Assembly (NCBI RefSeq): GCF_009936135.1 | Contig: NZ_CP047901.1 | Coordinates: 631,927 to 695,926 of the forward strand | DNA: 64,000 bases | DNA from: Candidatus Chazhemtobacterium aquaticus | GTDB lineage: Bacteria > Patescibacteriota > Microgenomatia > UBA1400 > Chazhemtobacteraceae | Reading direction: 5' to 3' | In this document: piece after piece, positions 10,772 through 20,860 of the stretch | How positions within the stretch are numbered: the first letter of the stretch is position 1 | Layout of the letters: each line of letters opens with the position of its first letter | Position numbers and translations under genes: made by a program | Notes under the pieces: generated by a model | The model's input: only the letters and a program-made list of their open reading frames with translations | Told to the model about the DNA's origin: nothing | The model's database searches: none

Positions 10772-11470
10772 ATGAACGGTATTCTTCTCCTCAACAAACC
10801 AACCGGTCTCTCTACCTTTGACTTAATTAGAGTATTTAAAAAAGCAATCAAGCCTGACTTCAAGGTGGGGCATGCCGGTACATTGGATGTATTTGCCAAC
10901 GGTCTAAGCATCCTTCTACTTGGCTCAGCTACGAAAAACTTTAGTCTTTTCCAGACACTACCCAAAACCTACCTTGCCACTGCGCGACTGGGTTACTCAT
11001 CTCCTACCCTGGACATTGAAGGCGATCTTACTCCCCAAACCAATCCGCCATCAGTTGGTAGGGAAAAAATAGAAATATTGTTTAACAACTTTCCTCGTCA
11101 GTACCATCAATCAGTCCCGGCTTACTCAGCCGCCAAACATCAAGGTCAACCACTCTATCGCCATGCTCGAAAAGGTAATGCTATTACCAGCAAAACCAAA
11201 CCCGTTACTATTCATCAACTTGATTTAATAACCTATCGTTCACCTTTGGTTACCTTTAACACCAGTGTCTCCTCAGGCACCTATATCCGTCAACTTAGCT
11301 GTGATCTCTTTACCCAGTTAAAACTAGACAGCTTCTTATCATCACTAACCCGAACCCATATCGGTCCTTACCAGCTTAAAGATGCAATTAATCTAGATAC
11401 TCTTTATAATAAAAACTGGCATCAACATTTAATTACCAAATATGACCCACAAAATCAAATACAACAATGA
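10772..11470 (+). CDS. truB: tRNA pseudouridine(55) synthase TruB
   Basis: N-terminus GILLLNKPTGLSTFDLIRVFKK...GHAGTLD contains the catalytic Asp motif (HAGTLD) of TruB. Confidence 0.85.
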   Translation: MNGILLLNKPTGLSTFDLIRVFKKAIKPDFKVGHAGTLDVFANGLSILLLGSATKNFSLFQTLPKTYLATARLGYSSPTLDIEGDLTPQTNPPSVGREKIEILFNNFPRQYHQSVPAYSAAKHQGQPLYRHARKGNAITSKTKPVTIHQLDLITYRSPLVTFNTSVSSGTYIRQLSCDLFTQLKLDSFLSSLTRTHIGPYQLKDAINLDTLYNKNWHQHLITKYDPQNQIQQ

Positions 11471-11547
11471 CAGCCTAGAGCTTCTTGGTCGAGGCATCCT
11501 TTGGTTTTTTGGTTTCATGTTTATCCTACCCATTCCCTGGGTAATCA

Positions 11548-11835
11548 ATGACCAAATCAGCTACTTCTCCAAAGGCTTTACGGTTACAAGCCAAAAGTCC
11601 AAATAACGTGCGTGTTAACGACGAACAACAACGGCTTTCTTACAACAGAGCTTTTTTCTTGAATCTAGTCGGTGGTATCGGCTGGGCATTAGGTATGACC
11701 GTCGGCTTTGCCCTTTTAGTTTCTCTCATCTCGCTTGTCTTCTCTTACCTTGGCGGTCTACCCTTAATCGGCAACTTCTTCGCCACCATCATCAACCACA
11801 CCCTTACCGCTATTGAAAGCAGACCTAGCCTATAA
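11548..11835 (+). CDS. Hypothetical small membrane protein
   Basis: 95 aa ORF with a C-terminal hydrophobic segment (two transmembrane helices). No recognisable motif. Confidence 0.4.
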   Translation: MTKSATSPKALRLQAKSPNNVRVNDEQQRLSYNRAFFLNLVGGIGWALGMTVGFALLVSLISLVFSYLGGLPLIGNFFATIINHTLTAIESRPSL

Positions 11836-11840
11836 TCACT

Positions 11841-11869
11841 TTGACAAAATTATTAAGCAGATCTAAAAT
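11841..11869 (+). promoter_or_regulatory. Sigma70-type promoter TTGACA-N17-TAAAAT driving the thrS leader
   Basis: Consensus -35 at 11841-11846 and -10 at 11864-11869. The predicted start site coincides with the leader ATG at 11876, giving a leaderless transcript. Confidence 0.55.
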
Positions 11870-11875
11870 CAGCCT

Positions 11876-11920
11876 ATGTCTACCACTACCCGCACCACTA
11901 CTACCATCCTCCCGCTTTAA
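11876..11920 (+). CDS. Thr-rich leader peptide MSTTTRTTTTILPL (attenuator leader of thrS)
   Basis: 14-codon ORF with 8 Thr codons (ACC/ACT), located between the promoter and the terminator hairpin directly upstream of thrS. Confidence 0.6.
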   Translation: MSTTTRTTTTILPL

Positions 11921-11944
11921 TCGGGTTGGTTAGACTGCTTAACT

Positions 11945-11970
11945 AACCTCCCGATAGGGAGGTTTTTTTA
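11945..11970 (+). terminator. Intrinsic terminator/attenuator hairpin AACCTCCC-GATA-GGGAGGTT followed by T7
   Basis: An 8 bp GC-rich stem plus a U-tract, 45 nt upstream of the thrS ATG. A second copy of CCTCCCG lies inside the leader ORF at 11908-11914. Confidence 0.65.
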
Positions 11971-12014
11971 TACCTACAACCAAGCAGCAATATAAAGTAA
12001 TATACAAACAGACC

Positions 12015-13820
12015 ATGTCAAACAATAACTCAAAATTCAATCAGCTCTCACCAGAAGATCAACATCTATATCAAATCCGTCACACCGCCGAACATGTCTT
12101 AACTCAAGCCATGATTAATCTCTATGGACCAGACAAGATCATTATGGCCATGGGTCCAGCTACAGAAGACGGTTTCTACTTCGATTTTGACTCACCTCAA
12201 GACTTTAAACTATCTGAGTCAGATTTCCCCGTCATTGAAAAGGAAATGCAACGCCTTATCGATCTTGACCTTAAGCTTGAATCAATTACCGTCTCGGCTG
12301 ATCAAGCCAGAGACCTGTTTAAAAAAAACCCCTACAAGCAAGACTGGATTACTCAAGCCGAAAGCAACCAGCTACCCATTACCCTCTACTACACTGGTAA
12401 GGACAGCGAAAATGAGTTTGTTGATCTTTGTTCCGGCCCCCATGCCGATAGTACTGGACAGATTGGAGCTTTCAAACTACTTTCGCTAGCTGGCGCCTAC
12501 TGGCATGGTGATTCCAATAACAAAATGCTAACCCGTGTTTATGGCACCGCCTTTTCATCTCAAGAAGAACTAGAACAGTTCATCGAAAAACGTCAGGAAG
12601 CTGAAAAACGAGACCATCGAAAGTTAGGGCTTAAATTTGATCTCTTCACCTTCTCCGATCTTATCGGCCCAGGTTTTCCCCTGTACACCCCCAAGGGCTG
12701 CCTACTTCGTCAACTCATTAATGGATATGTTGAACAACTCCAAACTCAACAAGACTACCAACAAGTCTGGACTCCCCAGGTAGCCAAAGCCGAGCTGTTC
12801 GAAACCTCTGGACACTACGACAAATACAAAGACGACATGTTTACCATTCACTCTCACTACAGCGACGATGAGCTGTTCTTAAAACCAATGAACTGTCCTC
12901 AACACACCCAAATCTTTGCTAGCAAACCCAGAAGCTATCGTGACCTACCCATTCGTTACACCGACTTCGCCATGCTCTATCGTGACGAAAAACCAGGAGA
13001 GCTCTCAGGGCTAGCCCGAGTTAGAGCTTTCTCCCAAGACGACTGCCATGTTTTTTGCAGCGAAGAACAGGTCGATGACGAAGTAGATGTCATGCTTTCC
13101 ATGACTAAAGAGGTCATGCGCACCTTCGGACTTAAATATCGCTACCGTCTTTCCACCAGAGACCCAAACACCCCAGAAAAATACTTAGGTGATCCCAAAA
13201 TCTGGGACAAAGTAGAAAAATGGGCCGTCAAAATCATGGAAAGAAACCACATCGAATACTACGATGGAGTAGGGGAGGCCGCCTTTTATGCTCCTAAAAT
13301 GGACTTAATGGCTACCGATGCCTTAGGTCGAGAGTGGCAACTTTCCACCGTTCAGATTGACTATGTTCAACCACAGCGTTTTGGTCTTAAATACACCGCC
13401 GCTGACGGTAGTGATCAAACCCCAATCATGGTTCATAGAGCCATCATTGGCTCCTTCGAGCGCTTCCTTATGATTCTAATCGAGCACTTCTCAGGCGCTT
13501 TCCCAGTCTGGCTCTCACCAGTTCAGGTAGCTGTCCTACCCGTTTCTGACAAGTCCAATGACTATGCCCAAGAAGTCTTCTATGAGCTTAAGAACAACGG
13601 TATAAGGGTCGAGTTTGACCAATCCGACCAATCATTGGGCAAAAAAATCAGAAATGCTGAGGATCAAAAATACCCCTACATGGTTATAGTCGGTGAAAAA
13701 GAAGCCAAAGATAGCACTATCTCTGTTCGCCAAAGAGGTGAACAAGACCTGGGTAGTATGGATCTGACTCATTTTTTGTCCCTCTTGAAGGAAAAAATTG
13801 AATCTAAAGCTTTAAATTGA
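12015..13820 (+). CDS. thrS: Threonyl-tRNA synthetase (lacks the N-terminal TGS domain; editing, catalytic and anticodon-binding domains present)
   Basis: 601 aa. The N-terminus aligns with the ThrRS editing domain (HTAEHVLTQAM), and class II motifs and the zinc site (CPQH) are present. Followed by infC-rpmI-rplT as in the classic operon. Confidence 0.9.
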   Translation: MSNNNSKFNQLSPEDQHLYQIRHTAEHVLTQAMINLYGPDKIIMAMGPATEDGFYFDFDSPQDFKLSESDFPVIEKEMQRLIDLDLKLESITVSADQARDLFKKNPYKQDWITQAESNQLPITLYYTGKDSENEFVDLCSGPHADSTGQIGAFKLLSLAGAYWHGDSNNKMLTRVYGTAFSSQEELEQFIEKRQEAEKRDHRKLGLKFDLFTFSDLIGPGFPLYTPKGCLLRQLINGYVEQLQTQQDYQQVWTPQVAKAELFETSGHYDKYKDDMFTIHSHYSDDELFLKPMNCPQHTQIFASKPRSYRDLPIRYTDFAMLYRDEKPGELSGLARVRAFSQDDCHVFCSEEQVDDEVDVMLSMTKEVMRTFGLKYRYRLSTRDPNTPEKYLGDPKIWDKVEKWAVKIMERNHIEYYDGVGEAAFYAPKMDLMATDALGREWQLSTVQIDYVQPQRFGLKYTAADGSDQTPIMVHRAIIGSFERFLMILIEHFSGAFPVWLSPVQVAVLPVSDKSNDYAQEVFYELKNNGIRVEFDQSDQSLGKKIRNAEDQKYPYMVIVGEKEAKDSTISVRQRGEQDLGSMDLTHFLSLLKEKIESKALN

Positions 13821-13859
13821 TAAAATTAAAGCCTCAAGTTACCAATCACCGTCAAAACC

Positions 13860-14399
13860 ATTAATAAACATTACTCCATAAACCAGTACATTAGAGCCGA
13901 GCAATTGCGCGTTATCAAAGATGGGGGAGAACAACTAGGTGTCATGTCCAGAGACAAGGCCCTAGCTCTCGCCAGGGAACAAGGACTGGATTTAATCCTA
14001 GTTGCCGAAAAAGCCAATCCACCAGTTGCCAAAATCATCGACTTTAGCAAGTTCAAGTACCAGCAATCAAAAAAAACCAAGTCTGGTACCACCAAAACCA
14101 AAGCCACCAATGTCAAAGAAGTCCGTTTCACCCCTTTCATGGCCGAAAACGACTTCAACACCCGTCTTGAACGAGCCAGGGAATTTCTAGCCGATGGTCA
14201 CAAAGTCAAACTCGTGGTAAAATTCACCGGGCGTCAGATCACCCGTAAAGAGTTTGGTATCTCGCAGATGGACAAGGCTGTCCAAAGCCTATCCGATATC
14301 GCCAAACTAGAACAAGATCCCAAATGGCTCGGCAAACTATACGTCGGTCAAATTAAACCAACTAAACAAATTAAGAAAGATGAACAAGACCAAAACTAA
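13860..14399 (+). CDS. infC: Translation initiation factor IF-3; probable non-AUG (ATT at 13860 or ATA at 13878) start
   Basis: The reading frame is open from 13830. The stretch INQYIRAEQLRVIKDGGEQLGVMS aligns with E. coli IF3 [24 protein letters not shown] upstream of the TTG chosen by the ORF track (13905). The only in-frame candidate starts are ATT or ATA. Confidence 0.85.
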   Translation: MNKHYSINQYIRAEQLRVIKDGGEQLGVMSRDKALALAREQGLDLILVAEKANPPVAKIIDFSKFKYQQSKKTKSGTTKTKATNVKEVRFTPFMAENDFNTRLERAREFLADGHKVKLVVKFTGRQITRKEFGISQMDKAVQSLSDIAKLEQDPKWLGKLYVGQIKPTKQIKKDEQDQN

Positions 14400-14580
14400 G
14401 ACCAGACAAATTGTCGCCAAACGGTTCAAAATTACTGCTACCGGCAAAGTTCTACGACGCACTCCCAACATGCGTCACTTACGTCGTCGTAAGAGTGCCA
14501 AACAAATTCGTCGCTACCGCAACTATGTCGAGGTAAAAGGCGTCTTTGCTAAAAAAATTAAAAGAATGTTAGGAATCTAA
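14380..14580 (+). CDS. rpmI: 50S ribosomal protein L35
   Basis: 66 aa basic protein (KTRQIVAKRFKITATGKVLRR...RHLRRRK) in the conserved position between infC and rplT. Confidence 0.85.
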   Translation: MNKTKTKTRQIVAKRFKITATGKVLRRTPNMRHLRRRKSAKQIRRYRNYVEVKGVFAKKIKRMLGI

Positions 14581-14581
14581 T

Positions 14582-14932
14582 ATGCCACGCGTCTCAACTG
14601 GACCCTACCGCCGTCGTAAACATAAAAAAGTGCTCAAAGCCACCAAGGGCTTCCGCATGTCATACAACCGCCTTATCAAAAGAGCTAAAGAAGCCCTTCT
14701 TCATGCTGGTGAGTATGCCTATGCTGGCCGCAAGCAAAAAAAGCGCCAGTTCCGCACCCTCTGGATCAAGCGTATCAATGGCGGACTAGCAAGCATTGAA
14801 GATGCCCCCAGCTACAGCCAGTTTATCGGCAACCTCTCCAAGAAAAACATCAAGCTAAATCGCAAGATCTTAGCTCTACTAGCTGTCAAGCAACCATCAG
14901 TTTTCTCCCAGATCGTCAAACAGACGAAATAA
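14582..14932 (+). CDS. rplT: 50S ribosomal protein L20
   Basis: MPRVSTGPYRRRKHKKVLKATKGFRMSYNRLIKRAKEALLHAGEYAYAGRKQKKRQFRTLWIKRINGG is an unmistakable L20 sequence. Confidence 0.95.
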   Translation: MPRVSTGPYRRRKHKKVLKATKGFRMSYNRLIKRAKEALLHAGEYAYAGRKQKKRQFRTLWIKRINGGLASIEDAPSYSQFIGNLSKKNIKLNRKILALLAVKQPSVFSQIVKQTK

Positions 14933-14944
14933 CCCCTTTCTCTT

Positions 14945-14973
14945 GATTCCCCTTATTGAATAACCTATAATAC
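14945..14973 (+). promoter_or_regulatory. Consensus promoter TTGATT-N17-TATAAT
   Basis: -35 at 14945-14950, 17 nt spacer, -10 at 14968-14973, located upstream of the small gene at 15009. Confidence 0.5.
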
Positions 14974-15008
14974 TCAACACTCGTTCATTTGAGTAAGGAG
15001 ACTTACCT

Positions 15009-15227
15009 GTGGCTCGTAAAGGTTTTGTAATTGTAATAACCAGCAAAACTGACCCTGCCAAGCCAGATATGTCCTCGCACAACAGCAAGCTTGCTGAGGC
15101 AACGGAAGGTCACAAGATTGTGTCATTCTCAACCACTCAGCAGGTCGAAGTCGTGACCATGACCGGGTCCGGGATGCCCTACAAGGATGAGGTGCTCATC
15201 ATCACCACAACTCTCCATCTCGAATAG
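15009..15227 (+). CDS. Hypothetical 72 aa protein (GTG start) with a strong SD. Its GC content and codon usage are atypical and it could instead be part of an RNA element
   Basis: AAGGAG at 14994-14999 sits 9 nt upstream of the GTG, the only strong SD seen in this region. The ORF is flanked by its own promoter and a terminator. G-ending codons (AAG, CAG, GAG, GTG, GGG) contrast with the A/T-ending usage in neighbouring genes. Confidence 0.4.
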   Translation: MARKGFVIVITSKTDPAKPDMSSHNSKLAEATEGHKIVSFSTTQQVEVVTMTGSGMPYKDEVLIITTTLHLE

Positions 15228-15260
15228 GCATCACCACACCGCCGAGTCTCTCAACCCAGG

Positions 15261-15292
15261 GACGTCCTTAAACAAGACGTCCCGTCTTTTTT
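15261..15292. terminator. Intrinsic terminator GGGACGTC-CTTAAACAA-GACGTCCC followed by a T-tract; probably bidirectional
   Basis: Perfect 8 bp inverted repeat followed by GTCTTTTTTC. It sits between the convergent ORFs 15009-15227 (+) and 15302-15919 (-). Confidence 0.7.
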
Positions 15293-15301
15293 CTACTTTA
15301 T

Positions 15302-15919
15302 CTAATTACATCCAAACTGCTGTTCACAAGCAGTTTTTGCTTCACCGTCTAGCGATCCACACATAGCACACTGCTGGATCTTGACATCATCCATCATTGC
15401 CCCCAGATCTCTAAACTCAACATTACTAGGAGGAGTGAACTTAGACTGATCAGCTACCCATGGCTCACACTGATAGTTCATCTCTTCGTCCAATTTTGCA
15501 TAATCACTTGTTACTGGTGCTCCTTCAGTTTCCTGATCAACCTCATCAACTCGCTTCATTTTCAAACCCCCCTCCATCATCGAACCCCACACATAGCTAT
15601 ACTCGTCTCCGGTAATCACACTCCCGCTAAAATCTTCACCCTCAGCCGTCCTCACCGTGTAATCACTTCTACTCTTGCCTCCCGCAATATACACCTGACC
15701 TTCAGTCGCTCCTGTCTCATCCTCGTAAGAATAGGTACACTTCATCTCATCTCCCAAAGCCATTAGCCCAAGCAGTGTCTTAGGCATCGATTCTTCTCCA
15801 GCTCCATCCTGACTCACCTCTATGTTATCAGCCCTTCCTCCCAGCACCTGGTAACCCAGGATTGCCAAAATCACTATACCCAATAACCCAATCACCGCAG
15901 TCATGTTTTTATTTTTCAT
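15302..15919 (-). CDS. Hypothetical secreted or membrane-anchored acidic protein with 8 Cys
   Basis: N-terminal signal anchor (MKNKNMTAVIGLLGIVILAILGY), an acidic body, and Cys pairs near the C-terminus (QQCAMCGS...CEQQFGCN). Confidence 0.5.
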   Translation of the reverse strand: MKNKNMTAVIGLLGIVILAILGYQVLGGRADNIEVSQDGAGEESMPKTLLGLMALGDEMKCTYSYEDETGATEGQVYIAGGKSRSDYTVRTAEGEDFSGSVITGDEYSYVWGSMMEGGLKMKRVDEVDQETEGAPVTSDYAKLDEEMNYQCEPWVADQSKFTPPSNVEFRDLGAMMDDVKIQQCAMCGSLDGEAKTACEQQFGCN

Positions 15920-15992
15920 AACTTGATCCTATAAACAAAACAAACACTCGTCAAGCTCAAGTTTACTGCCATATCAAGCTTAAACAAAAAAA

Positions 15993-17345
15993 CTAGCTCT
16001 TCCAGACTGGCTTAATCTTCTTATCTGTAATCCCAACCACTCTGCCACCCACTGCCTCAATTAACTCCCGATCATGAGTAATCAGCAAAACCGAACCCTC
16101 AAACTCTTTCAAAAAATTTTCTAATGCCACAATTGATTTAATATCCAAGTGGTTAGTCGGCTCATCCAGAATCAACAAATCAGGCTTTCTGTACAAAAAC
16201 AAAGCCAGTTGCAGTCTTGCTTTCTGTCCACCTGATAACAAACCAACACGCGTTTTCATTGTTTGCTTGCTAAACAAAAACTGACGCAACACTGCCTCCA
16301 CCTCATACTCATACATGGGATAGCTATCCATAAACAGCTGCAAAGCTGATTTCTGTTCATCTAAAGCCTCAAAGTGTTCCTGGGCGTAATAGCCGACCTT
16401 AAGGCCCACTCCCACCTTAGCTACTCCCTCATCAGGTAACATATCTCCCAGTAACAATCTAATCAATGTTGTCTTACCCGATCCATTTGGAGCCACCATT
16501 AACACTTTCTCATCCACAAACATGTGAAGGTTAGCCCCTTTAAATACCAGGTCGTTACCATAACTAAAACTCATATCCTTCACCAATACCGCTGTTTTAC
16601 CCTTAATTCGTTTACCCTCAATCCTTGACTTAATAGTAATCGTCTCCCTCCGCTCCGCCGGATTTTTAATCATACCAGCTCTATGCCTCTCCAGTCGGCT
16701 CATCATTGCTCGCAAACCAGAAGGCTTCACCTTACCCTGAGCCAACCTTAATCTAAAGTCCTTGACCAACTGAATTAATCTTTTTTCCTCAGCTAGCTGT
16801 AGTGCATACAGCCTCTCCAGACTTACCTGCTCATTTTCATATACCTTCTCATATTGAGCATAACCAAAGGGAAAGGTTCTAACTTTCCTATCCTCAATCA
16901 TCCATACATACTTAGTGGTTTTGGCTAAAAAATCCCGATCGTGTGAGATCATAATCACCAAACCAGAAAAATGACTTAATGCCTCAATCAGCCAATCCTT
17001 TCCCTCGAAATCAAGATGGTTATCTGGCTCATCGAGTAGTAAAACGTCATATCCACCTCCATAAATCAACTCTGCTAGTTTTTCAATCTTTTTCTGTCCT
17101 CCTGACAATCTATCCCTGCCCACTATCTCCTGGGGCATGTATCCCACTCTTACTCCAACATTCCAATCAAACTTACCCTCATACTGATCCTCGACTCCAG
17201 CCAAAATCTTTAAAAAGGTTGATTTACCTGATCCGTTATCACCAATCAATCCCACCACCCCAACACCCCGAAACGAAAAACTTATTTCGTCTAACAACGG
17301 TTGGTTGTAATGTTTGCTGATACTTTCGCATTTTAGATTGATCAT
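15993..17345 (-). CDS. ABC-F type ATPase (tandem ABC ATP-binding domains, no membrane domain)
   Basis: Two Walker A motifs (GDNGSGKST and APNGSGKTT), two ABC signature motifs (LSGGQKK and LSGGQKARL) and two Walker B motifs (LLLDEP and LILDEP) in 450 aa. Confidence 0.8.
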   Translation of the reverse strand: MINLKCESISKHYNQPLLDEISFSFRGVGVVGLIGDNGSGKSTFLKILAGVEDQYEGKFDWNVGVRVGYMPQEIVGRDRLSGGQKKIEKLAELIYGGGYDVLLLDEPDNHLDFEGKDWLIEALSHFSGLVIMISHDRDFLAKTTKYVWMIEDRKVRTFPFGYAQYEKVYENEQVSLERLYALQLAEEKRLIQLVKDFRLRLAQGKVKPSGLRAMMSRLERHRAGMIKNPAERRETITIKSRIEGKRIKGKTAVLVKDMSFSYGNDLVFKGANLHMFVDEKVLMVAPNGSGKTTLIRLLLGDMLPDEGVAKVGVGLKVGYYAQEHFEALDEQKSALQLFMDSYPMYEYEVEAVLRQFLFSKQTMKTRVGLLSGGQKARLQLALFLYRKPDLLILDEPTNHLDIKSIVALENFLKEFEGSVLLITHDRELIEAVGGRVVGITDKKIKPVWKS

Positions 17346-17460
17346 ACATGCCTTTTGGATTATACCCCAACCGCACTTGACAATTTATAATGACAAGAAA
17401 TGGGGGTGAAAAAGAGCATTTCTTAAAGTGGCTGGTGCAAGTCCAGACGCCCCCGTATAT

Positions 17461-17682
17461 AAAATGAAAATGAAGATTTATACCACTGGGCAAATAGCCA
17501 AAAAATACCATGTTAACTTAAAACAAATTAGCAACTGGTATAAAAAACTTGTTCGCTCAAAACACATAGTATCTCTAAGAAACCCGGGTACAATCAAGAT
17601 TACAGGTGACCAACACGGTAGATACGGACTTCCCTCAAGTCTAGTCAAACATTTCCCTAATACACCACCCAAAAACTCTTGA
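17461..17682 (+). CDS. Possible small helix-turn-helix protein (low confidence)
   Basis: A 72-84 aa ORF in the ABC-F/pheS divergent intergenic region. The segment TTGQIAKKYHVNLKQISNWYKKL resembles transposase or excisionase-type HTH motifs. No SD, and the ORF could be spurious. Confidence 0.25.
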   Translation, partial: KMKMKIYTTGQIAKKYHVNLKQISNWYKKLVRSKHIVSLRNPGTIKITGDQHGRYGLPSSLVKHFPNTPPKNS

Positions 17683-17706
17683 CATTTCAGTTTGTCGTCA
17701 TATAAT
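17679..17706 (+). promoter_or_regulatory. Consensus promoter TTGACA-N16-TATAAT for the pheST leader
   Basis: -35 at 17679-17684 and -10 at 17701-17706. The leader ATG at 17717 makes the transcript near-leaderless. Confidence 0.6.
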
Positions 17707-17716
17707 CTCTCCCTAC

Positions 17717-17785
17717 ATGACAATCAAAATGTCACACGCGAGAAGCAACCACTCAACCGATCCTATCTTTTTTAATCGGCACTAG
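17717..17785 (+). CDS. pheST leader peptide MTIKMSHARSNHSTDPIFFNRH (tandem Phe codons near the 3' end)
   Basis: 22-codon ORF immediately after the promoter. TTT TTT lies at 17768-17773. The stop codon overlaps a GGGAGG (17785-17790) complementary to the terminator 5' arm. Confidence 0.5.
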   Translation: MTIKMSHARSNHSTDPIFFNRH

Positions 17786-17816
17786 GGAGGTTGCTTTTGG
17801 CGTTTTTAGACCCAAA

Positions 17817-17841
17817 CCTCCCCACAAGGGAGGATTTTTTT
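17817..17841 (+). terminator. Attenuator terminator CCTCCC-CACAA-GGGAGG followed by T7
   Basis: 6 bp GC stem plus a U-tract, 25 nt upstream of the pheS ATG. Upstream GGGAGG at 17785-17790 can pair alternatively with CCTCCC as an antiterminator. Confidence 0.65.
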
Positions 17842-17865
17842 ATTCTCTTAAGCTAGAATTCATCC

Positions 17866-18870
17866 ATGGACGATCTCGAAATCATCAAAAAACAAGCTAC
17901 TCAGCAAATCCAGTCTGCCAAGGATCTTGAAGCCTTAGACAAACTTCAAACTCAATATCTTGGCCGCAAAGGTTTAGTCAATCAATACTTAAGCTCGCTT
18001 CCTAAAGAAGCCCTAAAAAGCCAGGGTCGTCTCATCAACCAAACCAAACAATACATTGACCAGCTTATTGCCAAACGCCAAAAATCTCTTCAGCAGGTCC
18101 AACAAGAGATCGATGTCACCATACCAGGCATTCTTCCACCCATCGGCCACCTTCACTTAATTACCCAAACCATTAAAGAAATCGAGGATATCTTCACCAA
18201 ACTAGGCTTTGTCAGGCGTCGTTACCCAGAAGTAGAGACTGACTGGTACTACGCCGAAGGCCTAAACATCCCCAAAGACCACCCCGCCCGAGATGACCAA
18301 GAAACCTTCTATATCAATCCAGAAGTTGTTCTAACCGCCCATACCAGCAATGGCCAGTTACGAGAGATGGAGTTATTAAAAAAACCTCCCATCAAAATGA
18401 TTAACATTAGTAAGACCTATAGACGTCAGGCCAGTAATACCCATAGTCCCATGTTCCACCAGTTCGAGGGTTTAGTCGTAGACAAAGATATAAACATCAC
18501 TCACCTTATCGGTGTCAGCAACTTCTTTGTTCAGTCATACTTTGGCTCTGACCGTCAAGTCAGACTTCGTCCTCACCACTTTCAGTTCACCGAGCCCAGC
18601 TTCGAAGTCGACATCAACTGCCACCTTTGCAAGGGTAGGGGAGAGTTAAATGGAAAAAGCTGCCCCGTCTGTAAAGCTGGTTGGCTAGAGCTTGGCGGCG
18701 CCGGCATGGTCCACCCTCAGGTCTTAAAAAACGGTGGTATCAATCCCGATCGATTTACTGGCTTCGCTTTCGGTTGGGGGATAGAACGTCTCATCATGAT
18801 GAAACATAACGTTACCAACAACCTACGAGATCTCTATACCAGCGATCTTCGCTTTCTCAATCAGTCATAA
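17866..18870 (+). CDS. pheS: Phenylalanyl-tRNA synthetase alpha subunit
   Basis: 334 aa with class II motifs (...FRPHHFQFTEPSFEVDI..., GAGMVHPQVL), immediately followed by pheT. Confidence 0.9.
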   Translation: MDDLEIIKKQATQQIQSAKDLEALDKLQTQYLGRKGLVNQYLSSLPKEALKSQGRLINQTKQYIDQLIAKRQKSLQQVQQEIDVTIPGILPPIGHLHLITQTIKEIEDIFTKLGFVRRRYPEVETDWYYAEGLNIPKDHPARDDQETFYINPEVVLTAHTSNGQLREMELLKKPPIKMINISKTYRRQASNTHSPMFHQFEGLVVDKDINITHLIGVSNFFVQSYFGSDRQVRLRPHHFQFTEPSFEVDINCHLCKGRGELNGKSCPVCKAGWLELGGAGMVHPQVLKNGGINPDRFTGFAFGWGIERLIMMKHNVTNNLRDLYTSDLRFLNQS

Positions 18871-18877
18871 TCACTCT

Positions 18878-20860
18878 ATGGATATTAAGTTACCCCATTC
18901 ACTACTTAAAGAATTCCTAGATACCTCAGCTAAACCTGAACAAATAGCCAAGTCTCTCTCTTTATGTGGTCCCACCGTTGATCGAATCACTTCTTACAAG
19001 AACGATTACCTTTACCATATCGAGGTCATTACCAATCGCATTGACTCAGCCTCAGCCTTTGGCATAGCCAGAGAAGCAGCCACCATCCTACCTCAATTCA
19101 AATACAAGGCCAAGATTAAAAATGATCCATACCAACTAAATCTAAAACAACTAGGTGATCTACCCAAAAACTCACCACTTAATCTACAAATTCTAGACAA
19201 CTCTCTCATACCCCGCTTTACGGCTATTACTCTTACCAATACTCAAGTCAAACCCTCACCCAAACCGGTTCAAGATTGGCTCAATCTTTCAGGACTACGC
19301 CCCTTAAACAATGTTATCGACATCACCAATGAACTAACCCTTAAGTACGGTCAGCCTGTCCACGCTTTTGATTTAGACAAAATAGCCAACCAACAACTTA
19401 TATTGCGAGAGAGTAAGAAAGGGGAGTCTATCACGACTCTGGATGGTCGAGTTCACCATCTACAAGGTGGTGACATCGTCATCCAAGACGGCTCCGGTCG
19501 CCTAATTGACCTTTGTGGCATCATGGGTGGCCAACTCTCCGCCATTGACTCAAATACTAAAAATGTTCTTCTCTTTGTCCAAACTTACGAACCCAAACAC
19601 ATCAGAAAAACCTCTCTCTACACACAAGAGAGAACTCTAGCTGCCCAGATTTTTGAAAAAAAACCTGACCCCGAACTAGTTCTTCCCACTCTTATCGCCG
19701 GTGTTAAACTTCTAGAACAACGAGCCAACGCCACTATTAGTAGCAATCTCATCGACCTATACCCCAATCCAACTAAAACCAAAACCATCAATCTTGACCT
19801 AAACTGGCTTAACCAATTTGCTGGCATCAATCTAAAACCAACTCAAGTCAGCAGTATTCTAAAAAAACTTGGTTTCACCTCCAAATCAATCACTTCTCAA
19901 GTACTTCGCGTTACAGTTCCCAGCTGGCGCCACCATGATATTAATCTCACCCAAGACTTAGCCGAAGAGATTATCCGCATCCACGGCTATTTCCGCCTAC
20001 CATCTAATTTACCTTCCACCACCATCCCCCACACTCAAACCGACCCACTTCTTAAACATGAGTATCAAGCTCGTAGCTACTTAAGCAACCTAGGCTTCAC
20101 TGAAATCTACAACCTCTCTCTAGTCAGCCAAGACCTTTTCCGTCAAACCAACCATAAACTTGAACCAAAACTAAAGCTTTCCAATCCACTATCCGGAGAG
20201 TTTGAGTACCTACGCACATCTCTTATCCCCTCACTTCTCTCCAATCTGGATGCAAATCGAGGTAAAGTCGCTCCACCCCTACGCCTATTTGAACTAGCCC
20301 ACACCTACCACTCAACCAAATCCACCCTACCAGATGAAACCAGCACCTTAAGTTTTATCACCTATGGTTTAGATTTCTTTACCACCAAAGGCTATCTTGA
20401 AGCATTAGCCAAACACCTCCACCTTAACCTAAAATTCAAACCCCTGGCCAAAAAGACTCCACCCTTTATAACTAAACACTCAGCCTCAGTCTATTACCAT
20501 AACCACCATCTTGGTACCCTTGGCATCATCTCGCCCGAAGTTACTTCCAGGTTTAATCTAAACCAAACAGTCGTTTGTGCTGATCTTAACTTCGCCAAGT
20601 TAAGCCTCCAAATCAACCCTATTCTAAACTTCAAACCTATCCCGCAATATCCATCCATCTATGAAGACATAACCCTTACATCAACTAAGCCTGTAGCCGA
20701 TCTTATCACTCAGCTGGAAAATGCCCACCCCCTTATTGTCTCAGTTGAGTATCTTACCTCACATCAACACAACCACACCTTCCGCCTTGAATTCAATGAT
20801 CCTCAGGGTAATCTCACCCAAGCTAAAGTCACCCAAATCAAAAACAATCTTAAATCTTAA
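18878..20860 (+). CDS. pheT: Phenylalanyl-tRNA synthetase beta subunit (short form, 660 aa)
   Basis: Sits downstream of pheS. B3/B4 and catalytic-like domain order; shorter than the roughly 800 aa canonical form. Confidence 0.8.
   Translation: MDIKLPHSLLKEFLDTSAKPEQIAKSLSLCGPTVDRITSYKNDYLYHIEVITNRIDSASAFGIAREAATILPQFKYKAKIKNDPYQLNLKQLGDLPKNSPLNLQILDNSLIPRFTAITLTNTQVKPSPKPVQDWLNLSGLRPLNNVIDITNELTLKYGQPVHAFDLDKIANQQLILRESKKGESITTLDGRVHHLQGGDIVIQDGSGRLIDLCGIMGGQLSAIDSNTKNVLLFVQTYEPKHIRKTSLYTQERTLAAQIFEKKPDPELVLPTLIAGVKLLEQRANATISSNLIDLYPNPTKTKTINLDLNWLNQFAGINLKPTQVSSILKKLGFTSKSITSQVLRVTVPSWRHHDINLTQDLAEEIIRIHGYFRLPSNLPSTTIPHTQTDPLLKHEYQARSYLSNLGFTEIYNLSLVSQDLFRQTNHKLEPKLKLSNPLSGEFEYLRTSLIPSLLSNLDANRGKVAPPLRLFELAHTYHSTKSTLPDETSTLSFITYGLDFFTTKGYLEALAKHLHLNLKFKPLAKKTPPFITKHSASVYYHNHHLGTLGIISPEVTSRFNLNQTVVCADLNFAKLSLQINPILNFKPIPQYPSIYEDITLTSTKPVADLITQLENAHPLIVSVEYLTSHQHNHTFRLEFNDPQGNLTQAKVTQIKNNLKS

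Follow-up and report, generated by a model that had tools for sequence, protein, structure and literature searches.

A probable ribosome-mediated leader-peptide attenuator upstream of pheST in a member of the Patescibacteria

Which signal controls the phenylalanyl-transfer RNA (tRNA) synthetase genes pheS and pheT in a Candidate Phyla Radiation (CPR, Patescibacteria) bacterium? The question is raised by a 64,000-nucleotide stretch of the Candidatus Chazhemtobacterium aquaticus contig NZ_CP047901.1 (hereafter the window, 64 kb), in which pheST is preceded by a promoter, a 22-codon open reading frame (ORF) and an intrinsic terminator. An initial annotation had read this leader as a phenylalanine (Phe) attenuator resembling pheM of Escherichia coli and had proposed that the antiterminator arm would be masked once a ribosome reached the end of the mini-ORF. 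Every comparative test run here agrees with that reading. Judged from its sequence and its predicted RNA structures, the element is probably a ribosome-mediated transcription attenuator, in which translation of a leader peptide would sense charged tRNA-Phe.

Direct reading places the promoter, the ORF, the codons UUU UUU, GGGAGG and the terminator exactly where the initial annotation had put them, and scans of the 64 kb revealed that they are not chance features. The pheST leader promoter is the sole 12/12 sigma-70 match on both strands of the window, and the promoter of the thrS leader is the only other match of at least 11/12. Five strong intrinsic terminators were found with a stringent scan, and those of the pheS and thrS leaders are among them. 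The pattern CCTCCC-N3-6-GGGAGG is seen in the window only in these two leaders, each time in a terminator that ends in T7 and follows the promoter of the leader. The pheST leader RNA folds with z = -5.0 relative to dinucleotide shuffles.

The leader RNA can be divided into four segments (Table 1). Segments 3 and 4 form the terminator, which consists of CCUCCC (17817-17822), the loop CACAA, GGGAGG (17828-17833), an A and U7; the 3:4 hairpin has a free energy of -10.8 kcal/mol. The upstream GGGAGG (17785-17790) shares its first G with the TAG stop codon of the ORF. Its complementarity to the terminator 5' arm, already recognized in the initial annotation, extends to 8 bp, between GGGAGGTT (17785-92) and AACCTCCC (17815-22), and is thus longer than had been described. 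In the RNA, GGGAGGUU and AACCUCCC at these positions form the 2:3 hairpin of -16.5 kcal/mol, and none of 300 shuffled upstream sequences reached the energy of this native duplex. Segment 1 was missing from the initial annotation. It lies inside the ORF and pairs with segment 2 (17736-54 with 17785-17803), and the pairing of CCACUC (17749-17754) with GGGAGG (17785-17790) lies within the resulting 1:2 hairpin. This hairpin dominates the minimum-energy fold (-27.2 kcal/mol) and would sequester GGGAGG when the leader is untranslated. A U-run (17803-07) directly follows the hairpin and may be a pause site of RNA polymerase. RNAalifold returned 1:2 plus 3:4 for six leaders of the type found in the window (type I, described below). 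The predicted 1:2, 2:3 and 3:4 layout is that of a complete trp-type four-segment attenuator.

In the mechanism that we infer, transcription would begin a few bases 5' of AUG 17717, at about 17713-17715 with a 5' untranslated region of 2-4 nt, and the 22-codon ORF would be translated as a leaderless or near-leaderless message. On a transcript free of ribosomes, segments 1 (17736-54) and 2 (17785-17803) would pair, GGGAGG would be hidden, 3:4 would form and transcription would stop at U7 (17835-41). With plentiful Phe-tRNA, the ribosome would reach UAG (17783-85), cover approximately 17768-17798 and mask GGGAGGUU, which would lead again to 3:4 and termination. With scarce Phe-tRNA, the ribosome would stall while UUU UUU (17768-73) occupies its A and P sites, and would cover approximately 17753-17783. 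CCACUC (17749-54) would lie under its trailing edge, and its leading edge would fall at about 17783 and not quite reach 17785. The free GGGAGGUU would then pair with AACCUCCC (17815-22), the terminator would be blocked and pheST would be transcribed. When the footprint of the stalled ribosome was imposed as a strict constraint on folding, 2:3 formed.

Table 1. Features of the pheST and thrS leaders in the window, and leader peptides of related loci. Positions are those of the window, percentages are PheS identities to the window, and every peptide is followed by a stop codon.
Feature or locus	Positions (strand)	Sequence or peptide	Remarks
pheST leader promoter	17679..17706 (+)	-35 TTGACA 17679-17684, spacer 16 nt, -10 TATAAT 17701-17706	Direct reading and sigma-70 scan
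Leader ORF (pheL/pheM-like), 22 codons	17717..17785 (+)	MTIKMSHARSNHSTDPIFFNRH	ATG 17717, stop TAG 17783-17785; ORF listing
Segment 1 (anti-antiterminator 5' arm)	17736..17754 (+)		3' end CCACUC 17749-17754 pairs with GGGAGG of segment 2
Small apical hairpin	17757..17779 (+)	CCGAU/AUCGG	Phe codons in the loop; 3' half belongs to the 9-mer TTTAATCGG
Control codons (Phe at -5 and -4 from stop)	17768..17773 (+)	UUU UUU	Direct reading
Segment 2	17785..17803 (+)	Antiterminator arm GGGAGGUU 17785-92	Remainder pairs with segment 1
Segment 3	17815..17822 (+)	AACCUCCC	Terminator 5' arm and pairing partner of segment 2
Segment 4	17828..17841 (+)	GGGAGG 17828-17833, A, U7 17835-17841	With segment 3, intrinsic terminator
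pheS and pheT (putatively regulated genes)	17866..20860 (+)		pheS 17866-18870, TIGR00468, E 6e-79; pheT 18878-20860, TIGR00472, E 4e-127
thrS leader (sister element)	11841..11969 (+)	Promoter TTGACA-N17-TAAAAT 11841-69 (11/12)	thrS start 12015
thrS leader ORF	11876-11920	MSTTTRTTTTILPL	ATG 7 nt after -10 element; stop TAA 11918-20
thrS arm 2	11921-33	TCGGGUUGGUUAG	Directly 3' of stop TAA; pairs with arm 3
thrS arm 3	11943-54	CUAACCUCCCGA	Overlaps thrS terminator
thrS terminator	11945-64	AACCUCCC-GAUA-GGGAGGUU and U7	U-run ends 11969
pheS leader peptide, window, L081, L082, L162/L163		MTIKMSHARSNHSTDPIFFNRH	Reference; leaders identical; relatives 92-98%
pheS leader peptide, L161		MTIKMSHANARSNHSTDPIFSNRL	93%; 24 codons; 6-nt in-frame insertion; one Phe
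pheS leader peptide, L083		MNKHMSTARSNHSTEFFFINRL	80%; 22 codons; three Phe (FFF)
pheS leader peptide, L166		MTNYMQIARSNHPASLFKILT	68%; 21 codons; TGA abuts GGGAGG; one Phe at -5
pheS type II leader peptide, L088		MQHQLRSTFFFFTYHIK	FFFF
pheS type II leader peptide, L167		MTQINNKFFFFTYHIR	FFFF
pheS type II leader peptide, L168		...EGFFTYHIK	FF
thrS leader peptide, L081		MFTTTHTTTTILPL	
thrS leader peptide, L083		MKLIVRTTTTTLPR	
thrS leader peptide, L164		MIKQISTTATTTT	
thrS leader peptide, L165		MNSFSLTTTTTTIH	
thrS leader peptide, L067		MKIFTTTTTSC	

The relatives used for comparison are 169 loci (given L numbers) from genome and metagenome collections and exact-protein look-ups. PheS relatives place the window in CPR/Patescibacteria, with Candidatus Collierbacteria (Microgenomates) as the nearest group. 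The alternative pairing was analyzed with 36 distinct terminators upstream of pheS, by taking the best duplex of the upstream 62 nt with the terminator 5' arm. The duplexes between arm 2 and arm 3 show a median energy of -12.1 kcal/mol, versus -4.7 kcal/mol for shuffles, and they beat the shuffles at p<=0.05 in 31/36 and at p<=0.01 in 25/36. In 35 of the 36, arm 2 begins to pair -1 to +5 nt from the point where a stop codon ends. In a swap matrix, arm 2 tracks arm 3 across five stems (CCTCCC, CTCCCC, CCCGCC, CCGCAG, and TTCCCGCGAA), and the cross-class combinations are much weaker. The alternative pairing, on which the initial annotation depended, is thus far stronger than in shuffles, and it is conserved in that arm 2 co-varies with arm 3. 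These three measures (shuffles, junction distances and the swap matrix) were used instead of column-wise covariation because the MAFFT alignment of 34 stop-to-terminator segments was out of structural register.

The informative relatives were metagenome contigs and loci from exact-protein look-ups, not the nearest GTDB relatives. The type I leader, recognised by GCGAGRRGCAACC and GGTTGCTTTTGGC, was found in the window, L081, L082, L161, L162/L163, L083, L166, and L164. Frame 0 is open in 4/4 distinct type I versions (window, L161, L083, and L166), and the ATG and the stop position are kept. The mini-ORF is thus conserved: the start codon, the frame and the junction of stop codon and arm are all retained despite sequence divergence and two in-frame length changes. 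The promoter is kept in L081, L161, L162, L083, and L166; the ATG lies 10 nt downstream of the -10 element in the window and 10-11 nt in the relatives. In leaders of types I and III, Phe at -5 never changes, whereas the neighbouring residues vary. L081 keeps the module despite a different upstream neighbour, and L166 has it right after rplT with its own promoter; the module of promoter, ORF and terminator therefore travels with pheS. The small apical hairpin shows one compensatory pair in L166, together with some broken pairs.

Another leader, designated type II and unrelated to type I, is placed after rplT in L088, L167, and L168. Its TAG stop codon overlaps GGGGAGUUU, the partner of the terminator arm AAACUCCCC. 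More distant CPR loci, whose PheS proteins are 53-55% identical to that of the window, have the pheS leader peptides MKSFFFASFFG, MKVFFFASFFGYI, MRLFFFTSFYFRIS, MKNFFSTSFCFRIK, MKNFFSISFYFRMK, MNLFTFTGFRFRLN, MKNFTFTGFSFTLS, and MNLVIFFNFNLE, each ending at a stop codon. A segment complementary to the downstream terminator is found 3-9 nt after each of these stops. The Phe count reaches 4-5 in 11-14 codons in L129, L132, L148, L026, and L034, and these predicted peptides of distant CPR strongly resemble E. coli PheM. Phe-rich mini-ORFs were observed 100-200 nt upstream of pheS in L129, L132, L135, L148, L026, L034, L142, L139, and L031. The initial annotation had considered a lineage-specific design as possible. 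The design recurs in CPR loci with PheS only 51-55% identical to that of the window, and the putative pheS leader-peptide design spans CPR lineages well beyond the window's own.

The window includes no synthetase genes besides thrS and pheST, and both of its synthetase loci therefore carry cognate-codon leaders of one design. The thrS leader ORF contains 7 threonine (Thr) codons in 14. Its ATG follows the -10 element by exactly 7 nt, and the ORF is thus leaderless. The 1:2/2:3/3:4 set is present, with the Thr codons within segment 1. By its sequence, this would be a textbook Thr leader-peptide attenuator with an unmistakable Thr leader. Runs of four to six Thr were found in the thrS leaders of five relatives (L081, L083, L164, L165, and L067). 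The design shared by the two leaders, as proposed in the initial annotation, was upheld for the terminator and the stop-adjacent arm 2, but not for the 9-mer TTTAATCGG, which had been included in it. The 9-mer is present at 11916 and 17771 (P ~0.016 with dinucleotide shuffles) and at two further sites in the window. In thrS it covers the stop codon and arm 2, while in pheS it corresponds to three sense codons and the 3' half of the apical hairpin. It is not kept in either set of relatives and its roles differ, which argues that the two leaders do not share it as a functional motif, although it may be a relic of common ancestry.

Two further observations concern thrS upstream regions. In L083 (4600-4830), an insertion of ~215 nt is present between the stop codon of the thrS leader and arm 2, with the Thr ORF and the terminator kept. 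The insertion has long inverted repeats (AAGCTTGTGATTTT / AAAATCACAAGCTT) and is flanked by ACTC; it may represent a small mobile element whose presence uncouples the attenuator. In other Microgenomates (L044, L064, and L143), the thrS upstream regions look T-box-like by eye, with GGAACCAC-type motifs before the terminator. The Rfam search at gathering thresholds found no T-box in these three regions.

In most Collierbacteria, pheS comes immediately after rplT, whose stop codon abuts arm 2. The dedicated mini-ORF appears to have been lost there, and the last codons of rplT would thus act as the leader peptide of pheST. In 23/23 such rplT-pheS junctions, Phe is present at -5 of the L20 protein (...VSF[T/S]xKK or ...VFKFTTSK before the stop). 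Outside the Collierbacteria clade, L20 ends in ...TFKKIVxxxK, and those genomes use separate Phe mini-ORFs. The association between Phe at -5 of L20 and the stop-adjacent attenuator is confounded by shared ancestry. Junctions of the rplT stop codon with arm 2 were observed in L006-L021, L089, L090, L093, L098, L099, L103-L113, and L169. It is conceivable, though somewhat less likely than not, that leader-peptide attenuation is general for CPR aminoacyl-tRNA synthetase genes (thrS and pheST), with the last codons of rplT as the leader peptide in most Collierbacteria.

Several observations weigh against the interpretation of the pheST leader as a Phe-sensing attenuator. The nearest GTDB relatives, L001-L004 (PheS 67-72% identical), have no attenuator; the pheS attenuator is therefore dispensable. 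The leader ORF lacks a Shine-Dalgarno sequence, and with 10 nt between the -10 element and the ATG, its message is not strictly leaderless from the predicted start. The two tandem Phe codons in 22 are not significant alone, and the loop is U-rich regardless; they sit in the loop of 1:2, outside segment 1. When only a blocking footprint was applied in silico, 1:2 re-formed, and thus the model needs the steric assumption that tight closure of the helix is prevented by an enclosed ribosome. Among the 6 type I leaders, the 1:2 core does not vary in sequence and gives no covariation, so that the support for this hairpin comes from conservation and energy. The close relative L161 and also L166 have a single Phe codon, and L164 (PheS 72%) retains the 1:2 hairpin after the loss of the ORF frame and the 3:4 terminator. 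The leader of L164 (7860-8000) is a degenerate type I leader with one A-U to G-U change in 1:2, UUUU after it, and a reading frame that stops after MSV. It may be a decayed or rewired variant. The initial annotation had pointed out that there are only two Phe codons. E. coli trpL also has two control codons, at the same -5 and -4 positions, and therefore the low Phe count is not disqualifying. For the window itself, Phe specificity is indicated mainly by the relatives.

The single Phe codons of L161 and L166 would fit a translation-coupled attenuator without Phe specificity, in which termination is set by the position of any ribosome on the leader, whether coupled, lagging or absent. Such an element would report general translation capacity or the availability of ribosomes, and its Phe codons would be incidental. 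The geometry from the stop codon to arm 2 is the most conserved feature, and the "leader" of most Collierbacteria is the 3' end of rplT with a single Phe, both in line with this explanation. It is nevertheless unlikely, because FFF, FFFF, and 4-5 Phe in 11-14 codons recur across independent pheS leader types, Thr runs precede thrS, and the invariant Phe at -5 stands among variable neighbours. The invariant 1:2 hairpin could also be an operator for a trans-acting factor (feedback by phenylalanyl-tRNA synthetase, L20 or RNase III) that would choose between terminator and antiterminator in place of the ribosome, and the ORF would only be a by-product of this hairpin. Relatives with PheS only 68-80% identical have the same segments 1 and 2, which is beyond the needs of pairing, L164 keeps the hairpin without the ORF, and RNase III cleaves the E. 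coli pheM RNA as a substrate (PMC5371410). However, the type II and distant leaders do not have the type I hairpin sequence and still have a leader ORF with a Phe run and an arm 2 next to the stop codon. In addition, ATG, frame and stop junction show conservation, insertions or deletions preserve the frame, and no Rfam family matches; a trans-acting factor is accordingly rather improbable. That the region is unregulated, composed of a constitutive terminator of an upstream transcript, an unrelated promoter and a chance ORF, is highly improbable. It is true that an 84-codon ORF (17428-17682) ends a short way upstream and that a variable insert separates rplT from pheS. Yet a consensus promoter lies between this ORF and the terminator and thus fires straight into it, the module is kept in L081 with different upstream DNA and in L166, and conservation of both the antiterminator complementarity and the stop junction far exceeds chance. 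Ribosome-mediated attenuation through a Phe leader peptide remains the preferred interpretation.

Two other functions for sequences in the leader were ruled out. A second small ORF (17797-17856), for which GGGAGG would be the Shine-Dalgarno sequence, stops after 5 codons in L083. GGGAGG at 17828-17833 was rejected as the ribosome-binding site of pheS, since it is 32 nt from the ATG at 17866; the terminator ends 24 nt upstream of this ATG.

NCBIfam matches were obtained for pheS, pheT, thrS (12015-13820), infC, rpmI, and rplT. The gene order is thrS-infC-rpmI-rplT ... pheST, in which an insert of ~2.7 kb separates rplT from the pheS leader. This variable insert (14933-17680) contains a 72-codon ORF (15009-15227) that has a promoter-like site (14943) and a terminator (15274-88) of its own, a 205-codon ORF together with a 450-aa ABC-F protein on the minus strand, and the 84-codon ORF, whose TGA lies inside the -35 hexamer of the leader promoter. 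No Pfam match was found for the 72-, 205- and 84-codon ORFs. L081 (PheS 98% identity) shows a different junction at the insert. The start codon of infC is most likely ATT 13863 (NKHYSINQYIRAEQLRVI...), 14 codons upstream of the listed TTG (window 13863-13905); the gene would then have the uncommon AUU start that is characteristic of infC. The NCBIfam match of infC starts at position 16 of the profile.

To our knowledge, CPR/Patescibacteria make few or no amino acids themselves, and we know of hardly any experimental study of gene regulation in them. A literature search on CPR/Patescibacteria with leader peptide or attenuation returned nothing relevant. If the proposed attenuation is real, CPR bacteria would couple transcription and translation tightly enough for ribosome-mediated attenuation, translate leaderless or near-leaderless mini-ORFs, and monitor tRNA charging to set synthetase levels. 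If the rplT end is a leader as well, the 3' end of a protein-coding gene would double as an amino-acid sensor. The leaders would offer a testable evolutionary series, from a dedicated Phe-rich leader through a Phe-poor leader to the rplT end as leader. They also constitute a compact family of several pheS and thrS leader types, none of which matches Rfam, usable for covariance models and CPR annotation.

The window has no match to Rfam at gathering thresholds. A permissive Rfam search (E<=10) of 11400-18000 gave no relevant match, including no L20 leader and no Phe or Thr leader, and no T-box was found with Rfam in the window or six related loci. T-box riboswitches, the usual control of thrS and pheS in Firmicutes, share with the window leader the target genes, the terminator/antiterminator output and the tRNA-charging signal. 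The window leader differs in having no specifier stem or T-box sequence, and sensing is proposed to occur via the translating ribosome.

In Streptomyces, leaderless leader peptides precede leuS, trpS, alaS, and thrS (PMC8079986). A thrL-thrS pair that has two Thr codons has also been described (PMC8079986, PMC1262725). Like the CPR elements, the Streptomyces leaders are mini-ORFs, leaderless or nearly so, that lie immediately before synthetase genes and contain few cognate codons. Several of these actinobacterial leaders have no clear U-tract terminator, whereas the CPR elements have a hairpin followed by U7 and a fixed junction between the stop codon and arm 2.

The E. coli pheM-pheST system corresponds in its operon and also in its neighbourhood, thrS-infC-rpmI-rplT ... 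pheST; its Phe-rich leader peptide is encoded between rplT and pheS. In E. coli pheM, 5 codons of 14 encode Phe, in contrast to two in the leader of the window. The two leaders have no detectable sequence or Rfam relationship. E. coli pheST has its own promoter, a short Phe-containing leader ORF and a terminator competing with an antiterminator, and low Phe-tRNA leads to more synthetase (PMC5371410, PMC1262725). These parts are common to both systems, and the response to low Phe-tRNA predicted for the window follows the same logic. The window differs from pheM in that the control codons are in the apical loop of 1:2 and not in segment 1, the message is near-leaderless without a Shine-Dalgarno sequence, and the host is a CPR bacterium.

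The trpL leader of E. coli shares the 1:2, 2:3 and 3:4 design and the two control codons at -5 and -4, with WWRTS before the stop in trpL and FFNRH in the window. The ribosome at the stop codon covers segment 2 in trpL, and is predicted to do so in the window. The tandem Trp (tryptophan) codons of trpL are within segment 1, its ORF is led by a Shine-Dalgarno sequence, and it controls a biosynthetic operon, in all of which it differs from the pheST leader. The proposed mechanism is thus ordinary; the host group is new, and so are a few details: a message that is nearly leaderless, control codons that lie in the 1:2 loop, and the fusion of the stop codon with arm 2.

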